A stretch of 64,000 nucleotides of DNA from Candidatus Omnitrophota bacterium. Lineage in GTDB: Bacteria > Omnitrophota > Gorgyraeia > 2-01-FULL-45-10. Positions 26,445-64,000 of the stretch are shown one piece after another. Below the pieces are notes generated by a model. The model made no database searches. It was not told the DNA's origin and worked only from the letters and a program-made list of their open reading frames with translations. The stretch covers positions 41,636 through 105,635 of the forward strand of contig JBAZKM010000004.1 in the NCBI GenBank assembly GCA_041650805.1, written 5' to 3'. Position 1 is the stretch's first letter. Each line of letters opens with the position of its first letter. A program made the position numbers and the translations under genes.

Positions 26445-26561
26445 ATAAACTAATCTCTCTTTTGTGGCCCGCCTTCGCAATCAACTGTCAAACGAATCGG
26501 TGCTTCGGCGGGCTCATCCGCCGAAGCCTTCTGTCGTCTGCCTGTTGTTGGCGAAGGCGGA
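26445..26561 (-). repeat. 117-nt conserved structured element immediately 3' of tRNA-Val (copy A)
   Basis: Near-identical to 55246-55362 apart from 2-3 substitutions in the first 20 nt and a few at the distal end. Outer stem CCGCCTTCG/CGAAGGCGG; inner hairpin GGCTTCGGCGG-ATGAGC-CCGCCGAAGC. Confidence 0.6.
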
Positions 26562-26637
26562 TGGTGGGCGGAACAGGGCTCGAACCTGTGACCTCTTGAA
26601 TGTAAGTCAAGCGTTCTACCAGCTGAACTATCCGCCC
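26562..26637 (-). tRNA. tRNA-Val (anticodon TAC)
   Basis: 76 nt. GGGCGGATAGTTCAGCTGGTAGAACGCTTGACTTACATTCAAGAGGTCACAGGTTCGAGCCCTGTTCCGCCCACCA. Confidence 0.85.
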
Positions 26638-27934: not shown

Positions 27935-28842
27935 CCGGTCCTCAGCTTTCCGACAATGCCTTTTACATTCTCTATCCCGTGTTCTTTCATGTACTCTTCG
28001 ATACCTCTCGCTGTGGCTGCCGCTGCGCCCGGATCCACAAAATTGGCGGTACCCACCTGGATGGCCGCTGCGCCCGCGAGCATGAACTCGAGCGCATCTT
28101 TATGGTCCATGATCCCGCCCATCCCTATTACGGGGATGCGGACCTTATTATAAACGGTCCAGACCATGCGAAGCGCGAGCGGCTTTATCGCCGGGCCGCT
28201 CAAACCGCCCGTGACATTTCCCAGCACCGGTCTTTGTGCCTCTATATCAACGGCCATTCCCAGAAACGTGTTCACGAGGGAGACCGCGTCCGCGCCCGCT
28301 TCCTCGGCGGCCTTCGCTATCCTGGAGATATCGGTCACGTTGGGGGATAGTTTTGCTATGACGGTAAGGCCTGTCGCGCGCCGGACCGCCTTGACCGTCT
28401 CGTACGTACCTTTCTCGTCCTGGGCTATCAGACGGTCCTTACCGCCGTACCGTATATTCGGGCAGGAGAGGTTCAGTTCGAGCGCTGCGGCTTTAGTGCC
28501 GACGGCCTTTGCCAGCTCCTTGAACTCGTCTTCATCATCCCCCGCGATACTTGCTATCACCGGGGTCCCGAACTTTTTAAGGGACGGGAGCGTCTTCTTA
28601 AGGAATATATCTACACCTTTATTCTCGAGCCCGATCGAATTTAGCATACCGGAAGGCGTCTCTATGACACGGGGCGGCGGGTTGCCTATCCTGGGGCGCA
28701 GGGTGACCGTCTTGGCCACGATAGCGCCCAACGACCGGATGTCGGTCAGTTCTCCGTACCCGTCCCCGAACGTCCCCGACGCCGCCATGACGGGGTTCTT
28801 CAGTTTCAGCTTTCCTATCTTTACGCTCAGATCCGGCTTCAC
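27931..28842 (-). CDS. pyrD: dihydroorotate dehydrogenase, class 1B catalytic subunit
   Basis: NPVMAASGTFG...SIGLENKG...GGI motifs. Confidence 0.85.
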   Translation of the reverse strand: MKPDLSVKIGKLKLKNPVMAASGTFGDGYGELTDIRSLGAIVAKTVTLRPRIGNPPPRVIETPSGMLNSIGLENKGVDIFLKKTLPSLKKFGTPVIASIAGDDEDEFKELAKAVGTKAAALELNLSCPNIRYGGKDRLIAQDEKGTYETVKAVRRATGLTVIAKLSPNVTDISRIAKAAEEAGADAVSLVNTFLGMAVDIEAQRPVLGNVTGGLSGPAIKPLALRMVWTVYNKVRIPVIGMGGIMDHKDALEFMLAGAAAIQVGTANFVDPGAAAATARGIEEYMKEHGIENVKGIVGKLRTG

Positions 28843-29687
28843 CAGATTATCTCCTTTGCGTTAAATACCGGCCCGTCCTTACAGACCATCTTGTATTCGT
28901 ATTGGGTATTGGGTATAGGGTATCGGGTATCGGGTTTGGTAAATTGCGATCTGACTTTTACCGGACAGCCGAGGCAGACTCCCACGCCGCAGGCCATCTT
29001 CTCTTCGAGCGAGACCTGGCAATCGGCGTTATGCGCCGCGGCGATCTTAGCTACCGCTTTCAACATTGCGTTAGGACCGCAAGCGTATACGGTCCATGGT
29101 CCATGGTCGACGGTCGACAGTAAAGACCCTAAGATTTCAGTGATGAATCCTTTGCACCCTTCGCTCCCGTCTTCCGTTGAAACTAATGTTTCTATGCCAA
29201 GTTCTTTAAACTCTTTTTTGCAAATTAACTGTTTTTTTGTTTTTGCGCCTATTAAGGCGTATATTTTTTTACCGTGGGCCGTGGACTGTGGACTGTGGAC
29301 TAATTTTTCTGCCAGCGCAACGAGCGGCGCGACCCCCATGCCGCCGGCGACGAGTACAACTGTGGACCGTGGACTGTGGACTGTGGACTTAATGTCGAAC
29401 CCTTTCCCCAGCGGCCCGATCACGTCGAGAAGCTCTCCCGGTTTACGCCTAGCCAATATCTCCGTGCCCTTGCCCACGACCTCATATAATATCTCGATCC
29501 CGCCCCTTATTATCCTGTGTACGCTGAAAGGCCTGCGAAGCAGCGGATCGACAGCGTCGGAAGGGCGCACCTCTATAAATTGGCCCGGTGCCGTCGCGCG
29601 CGCAAGATACGGCGCCCCGAGCCGCATCTTGTAGTACCGCGGCCCTGCCTTCCTGTTCTCCAGTATCTTCGCGCTAAGTTGTCTCAT
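28839..29687 (-). CDS. pyrK: dihydroorotate dehydrogenase electron-transfer subunit, carrying in-frame heptamer-repeat insertions
   Basis: FAD/NAD-binding ferredoxin-reductase fold and C-terminal Cys cluster (CGVGVCLGC). Contains the repeat-encoded peptides HSPRSTV, HSPQSTA, VDHGPWTV and PDTRYPIPNTQY. Confidence 0.8.
   Translation of the reverse strand: MRQLSAKILENRKAGPRYYKMRLGAPYLARATAPGQFIEVRPSDAVDPLLRRPFSVHRIIRGGIEILYEVVGKGTEILARRKPGELLDVIGPLGKGFDIKSTVHSPRSTVVLVAGGMGVAPLVALAEKLVHSPQSTAHGKKIYALIGAKTKKQLICKKEFKELGIETLVSTEDGSEGCKGFITEILGSLLSTVDHGPWTVYACGPNAMLKAVAKIAAAHNADCQVSLEEKMACGVGVCLGCPVKVRSQFTKPDTRYPIPNTQYEYKMVCKDGPVFNAKEIIW
28893..28938. repeat. heptamer tandem array (GTATNGG) x5 to x6, in-frame inside pyrK
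   Basis: gtattcg tattggg tattggg tataggg tatcggg tatcggg. On the pyrK strand this encodes KPDTRYPIPNTQYEYK. Confidence 0.7.
29274..29389. repeat. two heptamer arrays (GTGGACT/GTGGACC) inside pyrK (29274-29301 and 29360-29389), plus a related (GGTCCAT) array at 29091-29118
   Basis: Direct reading gives gtgggcc gtggact gtggact gtggact. Each array is a multiple of 21 nt in-frame, encoding 7-aa units (V)HSP(R/Q)ST(V/A). Confidence 0.7.
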
Positions 29688-29690
29688 ATT

Positions 29691-30923
29691 TCAGAAAAAG
29701 CTCAGCTGCTTCTCGGGGTCTTCCTCGCCCTTCCTGAAGACACCCACCTTCCCGTATTCCCCGTCGTAACCGGGCATTATCTCCACTTCCCCTTTGCGCG
29801 TGTTCATGATCCCTTTCGCTATCTTCGCGGGGCATCTCTCTTTCAACTCTTCTTCGGGGGCATCGAGCAGTATCGCGAACTCGTTCCCGAAATTCTTTAT
29901 CATCTGGAAATACTCCTTCTCCACGGTCATCGAATCGGGGCTGAAGCCGAGCGCGTCGCCGATGATCTCGGCGAGCGGCACCATGCTCTTGAAAGGCGGG
30001 CTCGACTCCGACACGAAGCCCTCCGGCCTGTCGGCAAGGCCCTCGAGCCGGTGGAGGACGCCTATCGTTACCGGCTTGCCGCATACGGGACACTTATTAT
30101 TCACCCTCATCGCCTCTTTCGGCTCCAGGCGTGTCTTGCATACCCTGTGGCCGTCCCAGTGGTATTTACCCTCCTCCGGGAAGAACTCTATGGTGTAGAG
30201 AAATCTCGACCTGTCTTTCTTCTTCAATATATCTATGAGCTCCTTATACCCGAACCTCGTCTTAAAGACATTTGCCTCTCTCCCTATTTTGGAAGGCGAA
30301 TGGGAATCGGAATTCGAGGTGAGGCAGAACCTGTCAAGCTTTGACCATCTCCAGTTCATGGCCGGGTCGCTGGAGAGGCCCGTCTCTATCGAAAATACCT
30401 TGGGCGTCTCCGCCTCGAAGCACTCCTCGGGGGAGTCAAACCCGGAATTCGAGCCGAATATGCTGAAGTGCGGCGTCCACGCGTGGCTCGGCACGACGAA
30501 TATATCGGGATCTATGGCAGTGAGGAGGCGCACCATCCTGTCGCACTCCAGTGCCAGTATGGGCCGCCCGTCGCTCGCGAGGTCGCCGTATTCGCCTACG
30601 GCCCTGTTTATCTCTTCGACGGCATTGAAGCTGGGCGCGAATATTATATTATGGACCTTCCGGGTCCTGCCCGCCTTGAAGTATATATTGGACACCTCGG
30701 CCGTAAGGATGAAATATACGCCGTCATGAAGATAGATGCCGTACTCGGTCTCCTGGAGCTTGTTCTTCAGCTCCGAAAGCCACATGGGGTGGGTGAAGTC
30801 GCCGGTGCCGAGCATCGACATCCCTTTTATCTTAGCCCACCTGGCAAGCGATGCCAGCTCCATCTCCCTGGATGTGGCGCGCGAGTATTTCGAGTGTATG
30901 TGGAAGTCGGCTATGAACGGCAT
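29691..30923 (-). CDS. endonuclease Q-like PHP-domain protein (TIGR00375 family)
   Basis: ADFHIHSKYSRATS and LGTGDFTHPMW PHP motifs, HAWTPH, SNSDSHSPSKIGREANVF, GKYHWDGHRVC, and CPVCGKP zinc finger. All are co-linear with archaeal EndoQ blocks. Confidence 0.65.
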   Translation of the reverse strand: MPFIADFHIHSKYSRATSREMELASLARWAKIKGMSMLGTGDFTHPMWLSELKNKLQETEYGIYLHDGVYFILTAEVSNIYFKAGRTRKVHNIIFAPSFNAVEEINRAVGEYGDLASDGRPILALECDRMVRLLTAIDPDIFVVPSHAWTPHFSIFGSNSGFDSPEECFEAETPKVFSIETGLSSDPAMNWRWSKLDRFCLTSNSDSHSPSKIGREANVFKTRFGYKELIDILKKKDRSRFLYTIEFFPEEGKYHWDGHRVCKTRLEPKEAMRVNNKCPVCGKPVTIGVLHRLEGLADRPEGFVSESSPPFKSMVPLAEIIGDALGFSPDSMTVEKEYFQMIKNFGNEFAILLDAPEEELKERCPAKIAKGIMNTRKGEVEIMPGYDGEYGKVGVFRKGEEDPEKQLSFF

Positions 30924-34561: not shown

Positions 34562-34633
34562 TAGTTAGGGGTTTGGGGTTAGGAGCTTGGAGTGTTGGGA
34601 ATTCTTCTCCCAACCCCATACTCCTAACTCCCG
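34562..34633. repeat. heptamer-based palindromic (REP-like) intergenic element
   Basis: gttaggg gtttggg gttagga gcttgga ...tgggaattcttctccca... then the inverted arm tcccaac cccatac tcctaac tcccgac. Lies between rsmI and glmS. Confidence 0.5.
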
Positions 34634-38494: not shown

Positions 38495-38572
38495 TGGCGT
38501 CCCCACCCGGATTTGAACCGGGGTCATCAGAATGAAAATCTGATGTCCTAGACCAGGCTAGACGATGGGGAC
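38495..38572 (-). tRNA. tRNA-Glu (anticodon TTC)
   Basis: GTCCCCATCGTCTAGCCTGGTCTAGGACATCAGATTTTCATTCTGATGACCCCGGTTCAAATCCGGGTGGGGACGCCA. Closely resembles E. coli tRNA-Glu. Confidence 0.8.
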
Positions 38573-38634
38573 GCTTTCAAACAATTTCAAATTACCAATG
38601 TCAAATTAATTGGATATTTGTAATTTGTCATTGG

Positions 38635-41133: not shown

Positions 41134-41205
41134 GGTCCATAGTCGATAGTCCATGGTCCATAGTAAAAACTTTGGCCGTCGACTGTGGACCGTGGACTGT
41201 TGACC
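41134..41205. repeat. heptamer-based palindromic REP-like element in the gyrB-gyrA intergenic region
   Basis: ggtccat agtcgat agtccat ggtccat ag ...loop... gtcgact gtggacc gtggact gttgacc (imperfect inverted arms). Confidence 0.5.
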
Positions 41206-51642: not shown

Positions 51643-51715
51643 GGTCCACAGTCGACTGTCCATGGTCGACCGTATAAAGCATTTACTGTGGACCATCGAC
51701 TATGGACCGTGGACT
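51643..51715. repeat. heptamer-based palindromic REP-like element between ndk and yicC
   Basis: ggtccac agtcgac tgtccat ggtcgac c ...loop... ctgtggacc atcgact atggacc gtggact (inverted arms). Confidence 0.5.
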
Positions 51716-55620: not shown

Positions 55621-58600
55621 ATGTCAGACGCTAGATCTGGTAGTACTCCTAATGTGATCTTGAATAGACGCCCATTCAGGGTGACGATCGCCATTGTCAC
55701 CCTGTGGGCGTTTTTACTTAATATTGTAGCATACGATCTGGCCTGGGCTGCCGGAACGCCTACAGAGCTTACTAGCGTCGGCCCTGATAGAGCCGGCGGC
55801 CCGGGCGTTGTGAAGGAACTGGACGCTTCGACATTTTCATTACCCCAGTATCTCGGTTCTATCCGCGACTCCTGGTCCCCTAAACCCTATACCCTATACC
55901 CTATACCCAATACTATAATCCACATCCAAGACGCCCACTGCAACTATTATGCCCAGCACAAGATAAAAGAGATAATAGAGTATCTGAATAGAGAATACGG
56001 CGTAGATACCGTAAATCTCGAGGGTGGGGCGATGGGTTACGACCTGTCCCCGTTTACGGATATACGCGACAAAGATATCCGCGAAAAGGCGACCGACCAT
56101 TTCGTGAAAGAGGGTTTGGTGAACGGCGCAGAGTACTTCGCCATCAACAACCCGGAGAAGATAGCGCTTTGGGGGGTAGAGGATGCCCGGCTCTATGTCG
56201 ATAACCTCAATGTCTACAGGAGTTCAGCCGTCCGCAAGGCCGAGATCGAGAAGCATATTAAATCGCTCAACCACATCATCAACAACTTAAAACCGAAGAT
56301 ATATTCGAAAGAGCTTCTCGAGTTCGACCTGGCATATTCCTCATACAAGGCGCACAATTCGGAATTCAAAGATTACCTGTCATACCTCATAACGAAAGCA
56401 AAAGAGAGGGCCATCAACGTAAAACAATTTACAAATATCTACATCCTAAGCCGGACGCTCGGCGAGGAGGGGAAGGTCGATTTTAAAAGAGCGAATATCG
56501 AACGCGACGTTATGATAGATGCGCTCGGGAAACGGCTTTCGAAAAGCGCTCTCGAGGAACTTGTGGTGAAGACGGTTGAATTCAAGGCGGAGAGGATATC
56601 GCAAAAGGAATTTTACGCGTACCTCACAGGTAAGGCGAAAGTCGCCGGCTTGGACATGGACGGCTTCCCCGAACTCCGCAGGTATATTATCTATATCTCT
56701 ATGTACGAAGCGGTCGATAAGCCGAGCGTCATGGAAGAGATAGATGCCCTGGAAGCGAAGCTTCTGGAAGGCCTATATCGGAACGAGGAAGAGAGGACCT
56801 TAAGCCGTCTTTCGAAGAACCTGGCGTTATCGAAGAACATATTCGACATCTCGCTTACCAGGGACGATTACCGTTACTACAAGAAGAACGAGGCGTCGTT
56901 CGATATGCGTAACTACGCCGTGTTCATCGAGCGGGAAGCGCCTGCGCGCGGTATCACGGCAAAGCTCGACAACGATATAGCCCACCTCGACAACTATAGG
57001 CGGGAGATGGCGAAGTTCTACGAGTATTCATTCAAGCGCGATGAGGCGTTCATACGGAATATTAAGTTAGGGGGTATAGGGTATAGGGTATCGGGTATAG
57101 TAACCCGAAAACCAGGGGCCGCGATCCTCGTGACCGGTGGGTTCCATTCCGAGAACCTCGCAGAACTATTCAAGAAGAACGATATCGCCTACGTATCGAT
57201 CATGCCGAACTTCAGATCCGGCGACGAGTATGAGTGCCCGTACTTCAAGATCCTTTCAGGCGAGAAGAATATCAGGATAAAAGAGTCATTACCGGCGGTC
57301 CTCACCGGCATGCTCCCGGTACCGGATCAGCTGAATCCGGCGGTGATGAGAGAGCTCGAAAAAACCCAAAAACCGTTGGGCGCGGGAAGGATGAGGATGC
57401 AGGGGGAGCATGCATTTACACAGTTTTTGACGCGCATAGAACCGCTCCTTCTTATGTCTGAGGCCCTGTTGCCCATAATAATAGACAGGGCCATACAAAG
57501 ATATGAGAGGACGAAAGAGCCGCAGGTTATCAATATAGGGATCGTGGGGGCAGGATATGGCCAGGAACCCGTATCCGTGGCGATCGCCCTTGATAGAAAG
57601 ATAAGAAGTATGCTTGAGGACCGGCGTCTTCCCGGGGATTCTGTGAAGCTTGCAGTCCATATCATGAGCAGGCCGTCCCCCATGCTCGATAAGCTTAGAG
57701 ATAATGGAATAAGGTATCCGGCAGATTCGATCGCGCGACAGATCGCTCTCGGCAATATCTCAGAGACCGAACGGGACAGGTATTTTGAAGATACGGGAAC
57801 AGGGTCAAGGCGCACCCAGGCCCTGAACGATATCATGAAGTTTTATGAAGTCGATCTTTTGGACGATCCGCAGGCAGAGGTGCCGCCTCTCGATGCGCTA
57901 TTGGTCCACAATATCCTGCAGTATCTGATGCCGGGTGATATGCAAAGTGCGCAAGCGGCATTCGGATATCTGGGTTCAATGGTAAAGCCGGGCGGGATCA
58001 TTTCAGTCACGTCCCCGGAAGGAACCGCCGACAGATACGTTAAGGCAGCGTATGATGAGATGTTTAGCGGCCGCGGCGGATATGAGCAAGCGAAATTTGA
58101 AGGGTTACCCGTAGAGACAGTATTTTTTGTGAAGAAGACACCGCCCGCGCCGCAGGCCGGGTTCGGTCGCCTTGAGGTGATCTCAGGCGTAGCGGTGCTG
58201 ACGGCAGCGGCAGCGACTTTCCACGCCGCAGGCATCGCCGCGGCGCTCGTTGTCGGGATCGCCGGCGCGCTCGCAGCAGCGCTCTTATTCAGGTATCTCA
58301 ACCGGGCAACGTCGGAAGAAAAGACGGCCACACCGACACCTCATGAGGCCATGATAAGAGAATTATGGGGAAGCGTTCCGCGACCGATCGGTGATGCGGA
58401 ATTGCGAAAAGCCATCATAGAAAGATCTTTTTCTGGTGAAGCAGCCATGCGATGGGGTGCTGACACGTTGTCGGACCTTATCGATTTTAATAAATCGAGG
58501 GCAGGGACGCTATATATTACGGCTATCATAGAAGCCAGTTTACCCAAGTTAGGGATAATGATACCGGACAATTTTATGTACGGCCCTGCAATGACACCGG

Positions 58601-61600
58601 AAGAGATAAGATCGGCAAAAGAACGCGCAGAACTCCAGGCCATCGAGAATAGGATATCTCGTTTTACCGATGAATTAAGCGCTCTATTTGCAGACCTTGA
58701 TCGCATCCGCGGGCTTATCGAAAAAGACCTGATAACGGCGGAGCAGTTAAAAACAGCCACAAGATTATCCGGCGGAAATATGAAAATAGCCTGTGAGACG
58801 TTTGCCGCATTGGAAGGTTCGATAAGAAGCAGACAGGATATAGAAAATTTAATAAGATCGGCCGAGCGCAATAACAACATATTTATCATAAATGCGGCCA
58901 ATTTTGGTATTAATGACACCTTCAGCTGGCTTGCCCGCCATAGAGAATTTATCAATCGTTATGGGACTAACGGTATAGCTGTTTTAGGGCAGGTGCTGCG
59001 CTCCGGCCGCGTTCTTTTCGGTTCAAATCAATCTGAGAAGATCTGTGATTTTCTGGAAAAAAATGCAAGATATGTCGAATTATACGGGATGGAATATTTA
59101 TGTACTGCGGTAGCCGTATTAAATGATGAGCAGCTTCAGAATATGAGCAGCCCTCGTCGCATTAATATCTTCGAACCTACCCTCAACATCGGCAAGGTTA
59201 TCACAGAGGATAGCATGCTTAACGGTGCAAGGGTATTCTTCGAAGACCTCGTGGCAGCAAATAATGAAAGCGATAGATTGAAGCCAGAGGCCCAATTTAA
59301 CGAGTCTATAATAAGAACGATTAATGAAAATACCATGTCGCGGTACGGTCTTGACAAGATGCTTATCCTAAGCAGATCCCACAACTTAACAGCAGTGGCT
59401 ATTTATTTTACGAGAATAAGGCCTGTGGTAGATAAGGTCGGCATACAGGCGTTTATCGACGCAGTAGAAAATAAGGGCGAGATATCCGCAGATCTCGTGG
59501 CGGCTATCCCGGAACTTCTCAGGGTAGATCTGACCTTTGCCGGCGCGGGCCATCAAAAGGCTCAAGAATATGCCAACTATATATTGGGCACGATAGCGAA
59601 AAGGTCTACCGATGCTCTGCAGGCGCTTGTAGAAGCCACTACAGATACAGATGATGATATAAAAAGAGGCGCATATTCAGTTTTGGATACGGTTATGCCA
59701 AATCTCGGCGCTACTCTCAGATTTCACGGCGACATAGGGCCGGTAGGGCGCAAGATCGTCGTAGAATTTCTGGCCATGTCGGACCTTGAAAGATTAAGCC
59801 CATACAGGTTATATCTGTACATAGGGCGATTGGCCGAGAACGGGAATACTATAGACCGTATAAAGAACGCGGATAGACGCAGGCAGGCGATAAATAATGT
59901 CATAAACAAGGCCGACAGGGATTATGGAAACTTCACAAAAAGCGTGTACTATGGAGGAAAGACCGGGGATTATTCAATGTATGTCGGCCTTCTCAGCATG
60001 CTTTCCGATGAGGATTTTGAGAAAGACGTTCATGATATAGCCGCGGCCCTAAACGTCACCGCAAAAGACAGGAGTATAACTGATACATTGAGCGAGATCG
60101 ATGGAAAAGTCATCACACAACCTGTGAACGTTCAATATGTAAGCGCGTTCGATTTCGAAACAAAAAAGACGGAACTGGCGCTGCCGGACGATTTAGATAT
60201 CGAATTCAAAAATATGATCAGCACGATTTTCGGGTCAGCTGGAGAAGCGGATATTGACACCATCCTGGCGAGGATCACCGCCGTCAAGGCGAGTGTTGAT
60301 GCCCTGGAAGGAAGGGATAAAGCGGAAGTGACCGCGTTTTTCAACGGTAATAATGTACCTGATAACCTCCGGGCGCAGTGGAATACGGAAGATCCTAAAA
60401 GACACGAAACCGCTAAAGTAAATATCAAAAATTTTCTATACACCAGGATGGATATTTCAGACGAAGAGAAGACGGTATTGTTCCTGAAAGTTTTTGAACA
60501 CATGGGCGCGGAATTATTGCGAAAATACATAACTCCCGGGGCCGAGCTTTCCCCGGATGAGAGGAACCTTATCTTTTCGATGCTGAGAGAGGCGGACAGA
60601 CATCTTGCTGATACCATGCAGGAAATGGGGCTTGGCGCGCTGGCCGACAACCTAAAGAAGAAACCCGAATGGAAACTGATGAAGACATTACAGGGTAAGA
60701 TAAAGACGACAGTTGACGGTAATGTAAGGTCTGGCAAAAAAATAGAGCTGGTTTTCAGGGCAAAGAACCTTCTTACCCTCTATCAGGGGGCCTACTCGGG
60801 GACGTGTTTCGGAGACCGCCCTTACGATATAGCGCGACCGGACCTTTTTGTCGTCACTATATTAAGTAACGGAGAGCTTGCGGGTTCTGTCCTGTTCAAT
60901 ATACAAGGCAATAAATTGATAATGCTCGGTTTTGACCCGTCAGAAGCGCTGATGTGCGGCCTTGATGACACAAAGAGAAATGAGCTCGTAGACCATATCA
61001 TGGCCGAGATATTCAGTTTCACCAAAGCGCGTATCGTGGATCAGGACGGCAAAATTACGGCAGAGAACGATTATGAGTTATTGATCACTACAGAAGCAGG
61101 AGGCCTATCGAACAGGGACAAGGTGCAGGATTATATAATAAGTGAATACGTAACCGGGGGTAAGGTAAGAGTGGACCGGAGGACCTATCATCCACTATAT
61201 CAATACAGCGTTACTTCGGCGCAAAAGGCGAAGACAAGAAATGTAAAACCGAAAATGATCAAAACCACGCCTTCACCCGAGGCAGGATTCGGCGGTCTTG
61301 AAGTTATGACAGGCATTGCGGTATTGGGGGCGGCAGTGGCCGCCTTCCACGCCGCAGGCATCGCCGCGGCGCTCGCCGTCGGGATAGGCGGCGCGCTCGC
61401 AGCAGTGCTCTTGTTCAGATACCTCAGCCGCAATATTTCAGTGTCTCCGGCCGTTACCGCATCTACTAAGGGGACATCCCAGAGCAGTATGACCTGGGAC
61501 CCCATCGGATATTTTGACCTTGTAAAGCGTTTTGGAGGGCATGATTATGGCGCCGATCCGGCAGCGGACAAGATGCTGCTTGAACAGACAGGGAAGTGGT

Positions 61601-64000
61601 TCGGGACTAACGAGCCCGACTGGGGCGTCTCATTAAACGAAATGCGGGGCAAGAAAGGCGTTTATATCGGCGTCGCATACGGAGGGCAGAACCTTTCGCG
61701 GCTTTGCTACGGCGATTTTGAACAGGCCCTTATCGTAGACAGCAACCCCTTCGTAACCGAAATATTCATGCCTATAAGGGCGGTCCTTATTGCCATGGCC
61801 AGGTCTCGCGCGGAATATCTCGGTTTTCTTGCCGGCGTACGATTAAATGAGACCGAACTGGAAATGCTCAGGGATGCCGACCTTTCTCATATCGAATCCT
61901 ATATCTCAGGCAGGGCATTCACGGAAAAGGACAGGACGGCCGCGTTCAGAAACGAACTCTGGGGCAGGATACAGGGGATATTCCCTTCTCATTTAGCCGG
62001 ACAGGCAAGCACATTCTGGGAACTTTATGCGCCGGGAGGCTTCGGTCTCTCCTCCATGGTGAGAAATATGGATCGCGGCGACAGCTGGCTGTCAAGCGAA
62101 AGGAATTTCGCCAGGATACGAAAGATGACCTCGGAGGGCAGAATCTACGGTGTAACGGCCGATTGGGCGGACGCAGCGTCGATAAGCCCGATAGCGCGCT
62201 ATATGTCGGATCACGGATTGAAGGCGTCCGTTATTTATGTTTCCAATATCATGGAACGGATCGACGAGATAGAAGACAGGACTAAAAGAGAAAAGACCGC
62301 TAACGCGTTCAGGGGCAATATCCTCTCGATGCCCCGTACAGATGATGCCGTCCTTTTGTCTGTTTCTGTTTCCGAAGGTACCGGTCTCGGCAGGCCTTAT
62401 AAAACAATGACCAGGAGCATAGAGGAAGAGGCAAAGAGGACGGTCTTTGACAGGAGCCGGGGAGATAATTATGCCGTTATTGCCCCTGTTCCGTTCTCCG
62501 CGCAGGCAGGTTTCGGCATGGTCGAGGTCATGACCGGCGTCACGATACTGGGAGCGGCAGCGGCCGCCTTCCACGCCGCAGGCATCGCCGCGGCGCTCGC
62601 CGTCGGGATTGGCGGCACGATCGCAATCATACTCTTCTTAAAATACGCGGGGCGCGCGAAGGCAGGAGAGAAGGTGATCCTATTGGTGCCCGAACCTGCG
62701 CCGTCAAAAGTGTATATGCGCAACGCGGCCATGAATATCCTTTTCCTGGCTGTATTGGCGGTCATCCCCACGGTCCTGAGCCTGCTCGAGCCGAACCTGC
62801 CCATGCTTTCGCTGGTGCTGGACATGTCCCGCGAAACCGGGTTGTCGAAGGTGGTTTTCTACCTGTTAGGGGTAGCAGGCATTACAAAGTTGGTTGCCAA
62901 TACGGCCATGGTGATAATGCGGGACGGATCGGTCAGGGCAATCAGGTCGCTCAGGTCTTTTGGGCGTTTCAACTCACGCGATGTCATTAAGCTCCTCGCG
63001 GTCCTCATCGTCTTTATCGGGGCCGCGGAGTGGAAAGCGGTGAGTTTCATGGCCCGCTCAGATGTCACTACAATAGACGCGCACGGCGCCAGGATCAGGG
63101 TATATTTCGACCCGGCCAGGTCGGTACGGGACGAGGTGGGCAGTTATGTCGGGCGCTATCTGAATAACCTGCCGGCAGGGCACACCGAAGGGCTTGAGCG
63201 CATATCCGTCCTGCCCTATGATGCGCTCGGGGCGTTCGAAACGGCCAACGATTCGGCCGGGACGTATCGTTTTTTAACCGACACGGTCAGGATCAGGGAG
63301 GGCAGGGTCGAAGACGGCAGCGTCGTCTATCATGAGATAGGCCATCACGTCAACGCCGCCGTATTGGGCGCAGGGCAGAAGATGAAGTGGAATGCGCTGC
63401 ACAGGGCAAGCGGGGATAGTGACGCCGGTTACGTCTCAGCATACGCCAAAACTTCCGCATCGGAGGATTTTGCCGAGACGTATGCGGCATACTGCACGGG
63501 CTCGCTCCATTGGTTGGCAGATACGGACGGTATCCTTGCCGAAAAGGTGCTATTCGTCACCCGCCTTTTTATGGAGCAGGGCGCAGGCGGCGCCAGGTAC
63601 CTTGTCTATTTCAGCGATGATAACGAAATAACAGCGTCTACCAAGCATCGTCTCAGGATAGAAGAGAAGTATATGGGGGTCGATTATCTTCGGGAAAGAG
63701 TGGGGGCGCTCAGATGGTTTTTGGAAAAAGACCGCGGCCTGAGAGATATCATGAGTAACGATGATGCGGATACATTCAGAAAGTGGCTCGAGGAGAGACA
63801 TAGCGGGACCGGAATAAATGTCAACAGTACTTATCTTGTCCCGCTTTCCATGGATGACCTATGCAGTATGCGGAGTAACCTTGATTATGCCTCGGAATAC
63901 GTCGCCAGAACCGCGGGCAGGGCGCGGGACGAAAGGATCCAGAGGCAGGCATCTGCCCTTGTCGGCAGCATAGCGGGCTACAAAAAGAAGCTGGGTATAT
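55621..64000 (+). CDS. giant multi-domain membrane protein, N-terminal 2793 codons (continues past window end)
   Basis: Manually translated with no stop from ATG 55621 (RBS GAAGGAAA; in-frame TAA at 55510) to 64000. Signal anchor at the N-terminus. TraB/Tiki-like (IIHIQDAH...VTGGFHSEN), CheR-like (IGIVGAGYGQEP...LVHNILQYL...VKPGGII) and ATLF-like zincin (YHEIGHHV...SEDFAETYAAY) blocks. Three conserved two-helix hydrophobic units (predicted TM hairpins) plus further TM helices near 62.7-63.0 kb. Confidence 0.7.
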   Translation, partial: MSDARSGSTPNVILNRRPFRVTIAIVTLWAFLLNIVAYDLAWAAGTPTELTSVGPDRAGGPGVVKELDASTFSLPQYLGSIRDSWSPKPYTLYPIPNTIIHIQDAHCNYYAQHKIKEIIEYLNREYGVDTVNLEGGAMGYDLSPFTDIRDKDIREKATDHFVKEGLVNGAEYFAINNPEKIALWGVEDARLYVDNLNVYRSSAVRKAEIEKHIKSLNHIINNLKPKIYSKELLEFDLAYSSYKAHNSEFKDYLSYLITKAKERAINVKQFTNIYILSRTLGEEGKVDFKRANIERDVMIDALGKRLSKSALEELVVKTVEFKAERISQKEFYAYLTGKAKVAGLDMDGFPELRRYIIYISMYEAVDKPSVMEEIDALEAKLLEGLYRNEEERTLSRLSKNLALSKNIFDISLTRDDYRYYKKNEASFDMRNYAVFIEREAPARGITAKLDNDIAHLDNYRREMAKFYEYSFKRDEAFIRNIKLGGIGYRVSGIVTRKPGAAILVTGGFHSENLAELFKKNDIAYVSIMPNFRSGDEYECPYFKILSGEKNIRIKESLPAVLTGMLPVPDQLNPAVMRELEKTQKPLGAGRMRMQGEHAFTQFLTRIEPLLLMSEALLPIIIDRAIQRYERTKEPQVINIGIVGAGYGQEPVSVAIALDRKIRSMLEDRRLPGDSVKLAVHIMSRPSPMLDKLRDNGIRYPADSIARQIALGNISETERDRYFEDTGTGSRRTQALNDIMKFYEVDLLDDPQAEVPPLDALLVHNILQYLMPGDMQSAQAAFGYLGSMVKPGGIISVTSPEGTADRYVKAAYDEMFSGRGGYEQAKFEGLPVETVFFVKKTPPAPQAGFGRLEVISGVAVLTAAAATFHAAGIAAALVVGIAGALAAALLFRYLNRATSEEKTATPTPHEAMIRELWGSVPRPIGDAELRKAIIERSFSGEAAMRWGADTLSDLIDFNKSRAGTLYITAIIEASLPKLGIMIPDNFMYGPAMTPEEIRSAKERAELQAIENRISRFTDELSALFADLDRIRGLIEKDLITAEQLKTATRLSGGNMKIACETFAALEGSIRSRQDIENLIRSAERNNNIFIINAANFGINDTFSWLARHREFINRYGTNGIAVLGQVLRSGRVLFGSNQSEKICDFLEKNARYVELYGMEYLCTAVAVLNDEQLQNMSSPRRINIFEPTLNIGKVITEDSMLNGARVFFEDLVAANNESDRLKPEAQFNESIIRTINENTMSRYGLDKMLILSRSHNLTAVAIYFTRIRPVVDKVGIQAFIDAVENKGEISADLVAAIPELLRVDLTFAGAGHQKAQEYANYILGTIAKRSTDALQALVEATTDTDDDIKRGAYSVLDTVMPNLGATLRFHGDIGPVGRKIVVEFLAMSDLERLSPYRLYLYIGRLAENGNTIDRIKNADRRRQAINNVINKADRDYGNFTKSVYYGGKTGDYSMYVGLLSMLSDEDFEKDVHDIAAALNVTAKDRSITDTLSEIDGKVITQPVNVQYVSAFDFETKKTELALPDDLDIEFKNMISTIFGSAGEADIDTILARITAVKASVDALEGRDKAEVTAFFNGNNVPDNLRAQWNTEDPKRHETAKVNIKNFLYTRMDISDEEKTVLFLKVFEHMGAELLRKYITPGAELSPDERNLIFSMLREADRHLADTMQEMGLGALADNLKKKPEWKLMKTLQGKIKTTVDGNVRSGKKIELVFRAKNLLTLYQGAYSGTCFGDRPYDIARPDLFVVTILSNGELAGSVLFNIQGNKLIMLGFDPSEALMCGLDDTKRNELVDHIMAEIFSFTKARIVDQDGKITAENDYELLITTEAGGLSNRDKVQDYIISEYVTGGKVRVDRRTYHPLYQYSVTSAQKAKTRNVKPKMIKTTPSPEAGFGGLEVMTGIAVLGAAVAAFHAAGIAAALAVGIGGALAAVLLFRYLSRNISVSPAVTASTKGTSQSSMTWDPIGYFDLVKRFGGHDYGADPAADKMLLEQTGKWFGTNEPDWGVSLNEMRGKKGVYIGVAYGGQNLSRLCYGDFEQALIVDSNPFVTEIFMPIRAVLIAMARSRAEYLGFLAGVRLNETELEMLRDADLSHIESYISGRAFTEKDRTAAFRNELWGRIQGIFPSHLAGQASTFWELYAPGGFGLSSMVRNMDRGDSWLSSERNFARIRKMTSEGRIYGVTADWADAASISPIARYMSDHGLKASVIYVSNIMERIDEIEDRTKREKTANAFRGNILSMPRTDDAVLLSVSVSEGTGLGRPYKTMTRSIEEEAKRTVFDRSRGDNYAVIAPVPFSAQAGFGMVEVMTGVTILGAAAAAFHAAGIAAALAVGIGGTIAIILFLKYAGRAKAGEKVILLVPEPAPSKVYMRNAAMNILFLAVLAVIPTVLSLLEPNLPMLSLVLDMSRETGLSKVVFYLLGVAGITKLVANTAMVIMRDGSVRAIRSLRSFGRFNSRDVIKLLAVLIVFIGAAEWKAVSFMARSDVTTIDAHGARIRVYFDPARSVRDEVGSYVGRYLNNLPAGHTEGLERISVLPYDALGAFETANDSAGTYRFLTDTVRIREGRVEDGSVVYHEIGHHVNAAVLGAGQKMKWNALHRASGDSDAGYVSAYAKTSASEDFAETYAAYCTGSLHWLADTDGILAEKVLFVTRLFMEQGAGGARYLVYFSDDNEITASTKHRLRIEEKYMGVDYLRERVGALRWFLEKDRGLRDIMSNDDADTFRKWLEERHSGTGINVNSTYLVPLSMDDLCSMRSNLDYASEYVARTAGRARDERIQRQASALVGSIAGYKKKLGI
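55885..55913. repeat. heptamer array (CCTATAC) x4 inside the giant ORF, inverted relative to 57074-57100
   Basis: ccctata ccctata ccctata cccaatac encodes PYTLYPIPNT. Confidence 0.6.
57074..57100. repeat. heptamer array (GTATNGG) x4 inside the giant ORF
   Basis: gtatagg gtatagg gtatcgg gtatag encodes GIGYRVSGI. The C in the third unit avoids an in-frame TAG. Confidence 0.6.
58150..58300 (+). repeat. intragenic repeat R1 encoding the hydrophobic hairpin unit AGFGRLEVISGVAVLTAAAATFHAAGIAAALVVGIAGALAAALLFRYL
   Basis: Shares an identical 31-nt core (ttccacgccgcaggcatcgccgcggcgctcg) with R2 and R3. Confidence 0.7.
61282..61431 (+). repeat. intragenic repeat R2 (AGFGGLEVMTGIAVLGAAVAAFHAAGIAAALAVGIGGALAAVLLFRYL)
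   Basis: Same 31-nt core; about 85% nt identity overall to R1 and R3. Confidence 0.7.
62504..62649 (+). repeat. intragenic repeat R3 (AGFGMVEVMTGVTILGAAAAAFHAAGIAAALAVGIGGTIAIILFLKY)
   Basis: Same 31-nt core. Followed by additional TM helices. Confidence 0.7.

Follow-up and report, generated by a model that had tools for sequence, protein, structure and literature searches.

Tandem Heptanucleotide Arrays Occupy Four Conserved Slots in the pyrK Gene of Omnitrophota

Introduction

Cyanobacterial short tandemly repeated repetitive (STRR) sequences, known from Calothrix and Anabaena, are dispersed, lineage-specific families of tandem heptanucleotides located mainly between genes. Rickettsia palindromic elements, which are 100–150 bp in length and have a family consensus, are found in frame at scattered sites of protein-coding genes. 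Here, we describe tandem heptanucleotide (heptamer) arrays in the pyrK gene of a Candidatus Omnitrophota bacterium. The sequence analyzed is a 64-kb stretch of the contig JBAZKM010000004.1 (assembly GCA_041650805.1), hereafter the window, and the array counts given for the window are those of this stretch and not of the whole genome. The pyrK gene encodes a subunit of dihydroorotate dehydrogenase and contains four heptamer arrays in its open reading frame (ORF). The four places that they occupy, hereafter slots, are conserved across Omnitrophota, whereas the contents of the slots are not.

Two unit families are found in the window: GTSSAYN (family A) and GGGTATN (family B). Both these and the STRR sequences are dispersed lineage-specific heptamer families; however, the unit sequences differ, and the host belongs to Omnitrophota and not to cyanobacteria, so the arrays are not STRR sequences proper. 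With the Rickettsia palindromic elements they share the tolerance of repeat DNA in surface segments of conserved proteins, the frame remaining open. Unlike those elements, the arrays are only about 30 nt in length (28–41 nt), have no consensus beyond the unit, and occupy recurrent fixed sites, and two of the slots show little or no gain in length.

Heptameric repeats have also been described in Xanthomonas (GGGAATC) and Nostoc (GGGGAYT) (Rehm et al. 2015, PMC4692102), and, according to Mrazek 2007 as cited in that paper, 7-nt units are over-represented in bacteria; the over-representation in itself is already known. The Xanthomonas and Nostoc repeats are, like those studied here, dispersed tandem 7-nt units in groups of about four, frequently in inverted pairs and between co-directional genes, and they are under-represented in coding DNA, as are the arrays in the ORFs analyzed here in general, to which pyrK is a strong exception. 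Family B fits by its sequence the G3-N4 quadruplex pattern, but most units found here (GTGGACN and many of those in related genomes) are not G-rich. MacGregor 2015 (PMC4679880) described TAACTGA direct repeats in Beggiatoaceae, cyanobacteria, and Bacteroidetes, which also occur in sets of 2–6 copies, are patchily distributed across phyla, and in a minority of cases lie inside ORFs, where they encode peptides with a 7-aa period. The in-ORF copies of this single unit are mostly at protein termini or in hypothetical proteins, whereas the arrays of pyrK have many different units and lie in internal loops of a conserved enzyme.

What seems to be new relative to the known heptamer repeats is the conservation of internal slots in a housekeeping enzyme with exchange of their contents. 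PMC4692102 does not report a housekeeping gene with four arrays at positions reused throughout a phylum. In the literature, the coverage of which was incomplete, we found neither internal slots conserved in a housekeeping enzyme nor any mention of heptamer arrays for Omnitrophota or pyrK, so this absence is no proof.

Heptamer Arrays in the pyrK Gene

The ORF that contains the arrays (Table 1) has matches to the Pfam families DHODB_Fe-S_bind and NAD_binding_1, and the Lactococcus PyrK chains 5ksw_B and 1ep3_B match its product with an E-value of 6e-31. The AlphaFold model of the protein has a predicted local distance difference test (pLDDT) value of 82.5 and template modeling (TM) scores of 0.77/0.83 to 5ksw_B. 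It contains the FAD/NAD-binding fold and the C-terminal 2Fe-2S domain with Cys ligands, and the residues C223, C233, C238, C241, and C269 are invariant in the alignment of homologues. A public protein 100% identical to it is named PyrK of Candidatus Omnitrophota. The gene is adjoined by pyrD, which overlaps its 3′ end, in an operon with the order pyrR-pyrB-pyrC-endoQ-pyrK-pyrD-pyrF-pyrE, and this synteny is kept in relatives.

An initial annotation of the window, made from the letters alone, had placed four heptamer arrays in frame within pyrK. Tandem Repeats Finder, a separate period scan, and the ORF all agree with these places, and the peptides quoted for the arrays coincide with the ORF translation. 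Tandem Repeats Finder reported a period of 7 with 6.0 copies of GTATTGG at 28899–28939 (88% matches), 2.6–3.9 copies of GGTCCAT at 29089–29115/29091–29108, 3.0 copies of GTGGACT at 29281–29301 (100%), and 4.4 copies at 29359–29389 (91%). The period scan yielded arrays of 37, 28, 30, and 28 nt; the one at 29091–29118 consists of two GGTCCAT and two GGTCGAC units. Three arrays are thus 28–30 nt in length (4 units) and one is 37–41 nt, approximately 4–6 units overall, which does not agree with the claim that each array is a multiple of 21 nt.

Slots 1 and 2 contain units of family A, slot 3 contains the same family in inverse orientation, and slot 4 contains family B. The arrays of slots 1 and 2 have a 28-mer in common with an identical order of variant units. 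Within the arrays, units resemble their neighbors more than they do units farther away and form AABB and AABCC patterns, a signature of unit duplication inside arrays. Among tandem periods, only that of 7 is enriched in the window: nine arrays were found, against 0–2 for the other periods from 4 to 13 and 0–2 in shuffled sequences, and there are seven exact runs in which 11 positions or more match for period 7, and none for the others from 4 to 12.

Mapping of the arrays on the structure model placed all four slots in loops between secondary-structure elements, where the model confidence is lowered. The loops of slots 1–3 each lead into a beta-strand of the Rossmann-type NAD domain (that of slot 1 is located between strands E86-93 and E109-115), while slot 4 belongs to the Fe-S domain and has a pLDDT of about 50. 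The net changes in length relative to the Lactococcus lactis PyrK (5ksw_B/1ep3_B) are +2, +6, 0, and +13 aa for slots 1 to 4, and not the 7-aa units that the arrays had been supposed to add. The interpretation of the arrays as insertions is therefore retained for slots 2 and 4; in slots 1 and 3, the loops are of ordinary length, and with net changes of only +2 and 0 aa the term is wrong. If translated, the arrays would give PyrK peptides such as VHSPQSTAHGK and PDTRYPIPNTQYEYK.

Conserved Slots in PyrK Homologues

The comparison was performed with the 120 best matches to the window PyrK, all at least 51% identical to it; few of them are named, and those that are belong to Omnitrophota. In an alignment of Omnitrophota-type PyrK proteins, exactly the four array places are hypervariable in both length and sequence, so the array segments are not conserved ancestral sequence. 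Slot 2 is empty in about one third of the homologues and has length modes of 14 aa and 20–22 aa; slot 2 or slot 4 is empty in about one third to one half of them. A quantization of loop length in steps of 7 aa was considered and rejected: pairwise length differences among the 120 homologues peak at 7–8 aa in slots 2 and 4, but also at 3–4 and 11 aa, and divisibility by 7 is not enriched.

The slots can be found from protein sequences alone by searching for windows of 6 aa that can be translated from a perfect tandem heptamer, a property of only 11,401 of the 6.4e7 possible peptides. There are 557 such heptamer-encodable windows in the 120 PyrK homologues versus 9–13 in shuffled proteins. At least one is present in 101 of the 120, and essentially all of them are located at reference positions 99–107, 129–137, 186–196, and 245–259. 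The 120 best homologues of PyrD, the neighboring partner subunit, used as a control, contain seven windows versus 8–16 in shuffles, none above chance. A faint possible slot can be noted near aa 130–145 of the PyrD homologues P0171 and P0203 (ERRTTNHE, RASGIGHR), and period-7 arrays are located in the ORF after pyrK in two distant loci (L132, 3813–3844; L135, 6800–6851).

The DNA of the homologues shows true period-7 arrays at the slots, with different units: CCGCGGC, ATCGACY, and CGGTCCG in L001; ATAGCGT and TACGCAA in L003; ACCCAAT in L004; eight copies of GTCAGAA together with TTTCAGC, ACGATAC, and TACGAGA in L206; and GCTNCAC in L135. No array with three units of family B was found in the 209 loci scanned. 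In about 965 kb of related loci containing pyrK, the density of period-7 arrays is 0.404 per kb in pyrK, 0.041 per kb in other ORFs, and 0.311 per kb in non-ORF DNA (binomial p 5e-15), and periods 6, 8, and 9 show no enrichment in pyrK. In the loci L001, L004, L206, L207, and L209 (4–20 kb each), all the arrays are within pyrK. The initial annotation had proposed that the repeats can colonize coding regions. This does occur, but the wording understates the pattern: arrays in ORFs are rare, they are about ten times denser in pyrK, and there they hold four fixed positions throughout the phylum.

The lengths of the arrays have a second mode at 27–34 nt, which is absent for periods 6, 8, and 9, so about four units are preferred. 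G-quadruplexes as the cause of this preference were rejected, since GTGGACN and most other units are not G-rich. An assembly artefact is also rejected: reads are much longer than the arrays, which are moreover found again in many independent assemblies. A phase-variable contingency locus is not consistent with the data either: the arrays are identical between the independent samples L001 and L002, as well as L004 and L005, and all 120 homologues are full-length ORFs whose frame is never broken by the arrays.

The 7-nt periodicity and the position of the arrays are conserved, and the encoded peptides are not, which indicates that the governing process acts on the nucleic acid. Alternatively, selection could act on the protein, with the arrays serving to diversify or lengthen the surface loops of PyrK. 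The slots are indeed surface elements of variable length, and the peptides are polar. However, the peptides are unrelated between lineages, while the 7-nt periodicity persists, PyrK is a cytoplasmic housekeeping enzyme, and the same units are present in non-coding spacers. Selection of this kind appears very improbable.

Turnover of the Slot Contents

A limited pool of heptamers is reused at different slots of different proteins. Examples are ACAGTCC (VHSPQST), ACGGTCC, ACAGCGT (AYSVQRT), AATACGC (YAIRNTQ), AACGACG (TNDERRT), and ACTATCG (STIDYRL). Related units at two different sites were found in 17.3% of pairs within one protein versus 6.3% between proteins. Pairs of proteins that are 82–92% identical outside the slots are only 33–37% identical inside them.

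Two comparisons of alleles indicate that the arrays change by discrete events. The first is that of P0012 and P0086, which are about 92% identical. Slot 1, with eight units, differs between them only in point changes; slot 3 contains unrelated arrays of equal length; and in slots 2 and 4 one allele has an array where the other has 14 unrelated bases. The second is that of P0020 (L208, 128–931) and P0022 (L209, 9505–10308). They have about 93–96% identity over nt 1–375 and 586–804, and only 30–66% over the 210-nt tract at nt 376–585. The tract starts only a few bases from the slot 2 array and stops where the slot 3 array ends. The difference is one allelic recombination, the ends of which coincide with slots. 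Frequent mosaicism bounded by slots was rejected as a general rule, as only this one case is clear at the DNA level, and the screen at the protein level is confounded because the segment designated C is fast-evolving anyway.

In the locus L135 (5481–5818), three slots contain arrays equal in length and phase, each of them G followed by four GCTNCAC units and GCT. Each array is internally uniform; between the arrays, a single position of every unit varies and is A, C, or T. An inverted partner array is located 13 nt downstream of the slot 3 array, forming a palindromic element inside the coding region.

Together, these comparisons demonstrate that the contents of the slots change by discrete replacement, loss, or swap, in addition to tandem duplication of units within an array. 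A simpler scheme would be purely local slippage, in which each slot arose once from a native 7-nt duplication in an ancestral pyrK loop and then underwent unit mutation, contraction, and re-expansion without any exchange with other loci. The greater likeness of adjacent units agrees with it. The slot-specific unit TCGACTA (STIDYRLSTI) merges with the conserved sequence STIYACGP, and in slot 4 the AATACNN units continue into the native GAATAC (EY), as would be expected of such an origin; in addition, 7-nt units were proposed to favor slippage of the polymerase (Mrazek 2007, as cited in PMC4692102). On the other hand, the same families occur at different slots of different proteins, in spacers, and in other genes of one genome, and local events would hardly give slots 1 and 2 of the window a common 28-mer with the same order of variant units. 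The replacement in P0012/P0086 was wholesale, by an unrelated array of equal length, while the 8-unit array of the same gene pair was not homogenized. We consider purely local slippage unlikely.

Related Arrays in Spacers and in a Giant Gene

The heptamers of the pyrK slots are common to other arrays of the same genome (Table 1), as the initial annotation had noticed for intergenic palindromic elements and a giant gene. Both the gyrB-gyrA and the ndk-yicC spacers contain family A units in a 4 + 4 arrangement. The exact 17-mer AGTCCACGGTCCACAGT is common to pyrK slot 1 and the gyrB-gyrA spacer, and copies of it with one mismatch are found in the ndk-yicC spacer as well as in both slot 1 and slot 2 of pyrK. 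Family B, in turn, is found in both pyrK and the giant gene. The earlier comparison of the repeats to the STRR sequences holds as well, and they also resemble other heptameric repeats of bacteria: tandem 7-nt units in at least 2–3 copies are dispersed, period 7 is over-represented both in the window and in the related loci, the size is near four units, and inverted pairs occur in spacers, while coding DNA is occupied with the frame left open.

Table 1. Heptamer arrays of the window, their host genes, and related palindromic elements.
Feature	Position	Strand	Description
pyrK	28839..29687	minus	ORF, 282 aa; electron-transfer subunit (FAD/2Fe-2S) of class 1B dihydroorotate dehydrogenase; hosts four arrays
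pyrK slot 1 array	29359..29389	minus	coding strand (AGTCCAC)x3 + GGTCCAC; encodes STVHSPRSTV; loop before the first strand of the NAD-binding domain
pyrK slot 2 array	29272..29301	minus	AGTCCAC x3 + GGCCCAC; encodes VHSPQSTAH; loop from helix 116-130 to strand 142-148
pyrK slot 3 array	29091..29120	minus	coding strand GTCGACC x2 + ATGGACC x2; encodes STVDHGPWT; loop from helix 182-191 to strand 198-203
pyrK slot 4 array	28896..28939	minus	(ATACCCN)x5-6, which is GGGTATN on the plus strand; encodes KPDTRYPIPNTQY; loop of the 2Fe-2S domain, strands 242-246 / 263-267
gyrB-gyrA spacer element	41135..41205		four GTCCATN/GTCGATN units, 9-nt AT-rich loop, four inverse NGTGGAC-type units
ndk-yicC spacer element	51643..51714		4+4 family A units in inverted orientation, short AT-rich loop
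AT-rich palindrome	38582..38633		arms with 7/14-nt period (CAATKTC/AAATTAM pair); between the gyrA stop codon and the tRNA gene 38498-38572
Spacer palindrome	34564..34631		14-nt period (GTTAGGA GCTTGGG) plus inverted partner
Giant-ORF array, giant-family slot 1	55878..55913	plus	in-frame (CCCTATA)x5; encodes PYTLYPIPNT
Giant-ORF array, giant-family slot 2	57072..57099	plus	in-frame (GGGTATN)x4; encodes GIGYRVSGI
Giant ORF	55621..64000, runs past the window end	plus	N-terminal part of a 6400-aa protein (P0241, 100% identical); CheR-like S-adenosylmethionine (SAM) domain

The gyrB-gyrA spacer element folds on the transcribed (minus) strand with −30 kcal/mol (z −3.2), and the ndk-yicC element folds on the plus strand with −35.1 kcal/mol (z −5.1); both form long hairpins, in each case on the strand that is transcribed. 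Like the repetitive extragenic palindromic (REP) sequences, bacterial interspersed mosaic elements (BIMEs), and REPINs (e.g., Bertels and Rainey 2011, PMC3116915), these spacers are imperfect palindromes between co-directional genes with stable hairpins. They differ in that their arms consist of tandem heptamers, and no gene of the RAYT (REP-associated tyrosine transposase) type was identified, a systematic search for which was not made.

The hairpins and the presence of the same families in intra-operon spacers are among the arguments for functional cis-elements, i.e., RNA or DNA sites to which a protein reading the heptamers would bind, or pairing partners involved in the structure or processing of the pyr operon transcript. 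In such a case, pyrK would be the regulated target, and the heptamers would co-evolve with the factor. The conservation of the slots without that of the encoded peptides would place any constraint at the level of the nucleic acid, about four units are preferred even where they are not G-rich, and the minimum-energy fold of the pyrK mRNA pairs slot 1 with slot 3. Post-transcriptional regulators were proposed for the TAACTGA repeats by MacGregor 2015 (PMC4679880). However, a single gene and a single genome contain several unrelated heptamers, slots 2 or 4 are empty in a substantial part of the homologues, and the long-range mRNA fold is weak (z −2.5). A conserved long-range pairing between slots was rejected, as it is seen in the window only and the slots of homologues carry non-complementary units. 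A known RNA element was rejected as well: Rfam 15 gave no covariance-model match at E-values up to 1 in 28700–29800, i.e., around pyrK, and only five tRNAs in the whole window. We consider a cis-regulatory role rather unlikely.

Many proteins are homologous to the N-terminal region of the giant protein, and their heptamer-encodable windows cluster at aa 70–89 and 470–479 of P0241, the exact places of the two giant-ORF arrays of the window. The second hot spot is occupied in 19 of 150 representatives. The peptides in these slots (RTTNDE, DHRPSTID, AVRSTQY, PDTRYPIPNT) are the same as those of PyrK. In the array at 57072–57099, the third unit ends in C, and A at this position would give an in-frame TAG. 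The giant gene family is a second family with conserved heptamer slots of its own, two in number.

Arrays in Other Genomes

Three tandem copies of GTGGACN were found at at least 120 loci of many phyla, taking one genome per species, whereas about 17 are expected by our own chance estimate. GTGGACN was the sole unit of this cross-phylum scan, and a special status of this unit is not implied. The matches listed (L006–L125) belong to Planctomycetota, Lentisphaerota, Chloroflexota, Gemmatimonadota, Saccharibacteria, Bacteroidota, Acidobacteriota, and Rickettsiales, among others. Several of these genomes have multiple matches, some genomes have inverted pairs, and period 7 is the dominant tandem period in the listed loci too. 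None of the listed matches from other phyla is in pyrK.

One of the matches, L083, belongs to Omnitrophota (isolate nzgw295). At 1766–1785, it contains GGTCCAT AGTCCAC GGTCCAC AGTCCAC in frame (TVHSPRSTVH), directly after the sequence ...VMPKYK, which resembles the N-terminus of a glycosyltransferase of the glycogen synthase type, the putative product of this gene.

The excess of these arrays over the estimate could be expected of miniature mobile elements with their own machinery, comparable to Rickettsia palindromic elements, miniature inverted-repeat transposable elements (MITEs), REPINs, or small dispersed repeats, which sometimes land in frame and for which pyrK would be a preferred target. 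The spacer copies are palindromic, with 4 + 4 units and a loop, an inverted pair is present inside slot 3 of L135, and the size is fixed at about 31 nt. Against mobility of this kind, sequence conservation does not extend beyond the heptamer, target-site duplications are lacking, many unrelated units occur side by side, and two slots have little or no length gain compared with the solved PyrK structures. Furthermore, genes for a transposase, a RAYT-type protein, or a reverse transcriptase were not identified, though a systematic search for such genes was not made. Such elements are quite unlikely as the source of the arrays.

Origin of the Arrays

The explanation that we favor, and to which we give about an even chance, is that the arrays represent a non-adaptive, STRR-like family of slippage-prone heptamer mini-arrays, which are renewed preferentially at already existing arrays and are filtered for an open frame. 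The four arrays of pyrK would be the translated in-frame members of a dispersed family whose typical mini-array has about four units and 28–33 nt. The underlying process would be non-adaptive, either mutational or one of selfish DNA, and the arrays would be prone both to slippage and to forming structures. Renewal would preferentially take place where an array already exists, possibly through repair that uses another array as the template, through ectopic conversion, or through amplification of a unit anew; as a result, the slots would persist while their contents turn over. Selection would then leave only those copies that keep the frame, are free of stop codons in all three phases, and encode peptides compatible with a loop. 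In spacers, inverted pairs of 4 + 4 of the same units would form REP-like hairpins in operon transcripts.

Several facts weigh against this explanation. The tolerance of loops leaves the density of arrays in pyrK unexplained, since it is about ten times that of other ORFs and not below that of non-coding DNA. No donor–recipient conversion event was demonstrated. Several unrelated heptamer families coexist in one gene, both in the window and in L003. The arrays of L135 look more like a fixed-length product synthesized from a seed than like the result of drift and slippage. The mosaic breakpoints of P0020/P0022 coincide exactly with the outer borders of slots 2 and 3, and the arrays may therefore actively take part in recombination. 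A function for the arrays may also exist.

The arrays of L135, the mode at four units, and the coincidence of the breakpoints are not accounted for by non-adaptive renewal, and for this reason a directed writing of cassettes is kept under consideration. In this process, so far undescribed, cassettes of about 31 nt made of a single heptamer would be synthesized or copied into the places where an array exists, and arrays would also mark the ends of recombination tracts. We regard it as rather unlikely. If it is true, these arrays would constitute a class of ultra-small, frame-tolerant mobile or mutational elements that remodel the loop-coding segments of particular genes, and their carriers would be Omnitrophota and perhaps other phyla with arrays of the GTGGACN type.

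Whatever the mechanism, a tandem repeat whose unit is not a multiple of three would be expected to disappear from the interior of a conserved gene, and here such repeats are concentrated in one. If the pattern is genome-wide, it would provide a tractable natural system for studying the spread and self-renewal of very short repeats, and it would mean that loop-coding segments can evolve by replacement of cassettes instead of point mutation. Alignments, phylogenies, and structure predictions of Omnitrophota proteins would then contain segments encoded by repeats that are homologous in position and not in sequence.

Neighboring Genes and Repeats

Between pyrC and pyrK, at 29691–30923 on the minus strand, the operon includes a homologue of Endonuclease Q (5zb8_A, E 7e-53), an enzyme that cleaves DNA beside uracil or hypoxanthine. 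An endoQ gene encoding 409–410 aa is located at the same place in L001–L005 and L209 and is absent in L206 and L207. The presence of a DNA-repair nuclease inside an operon of pyrimidine biosynthesis is unusual. In addition, an inverted repeat with 43-nt arms, which are 74% complementary and separated by a 6-nt gap, is located at 26469–26560, directly beside the tRNA gene 26565–26637.

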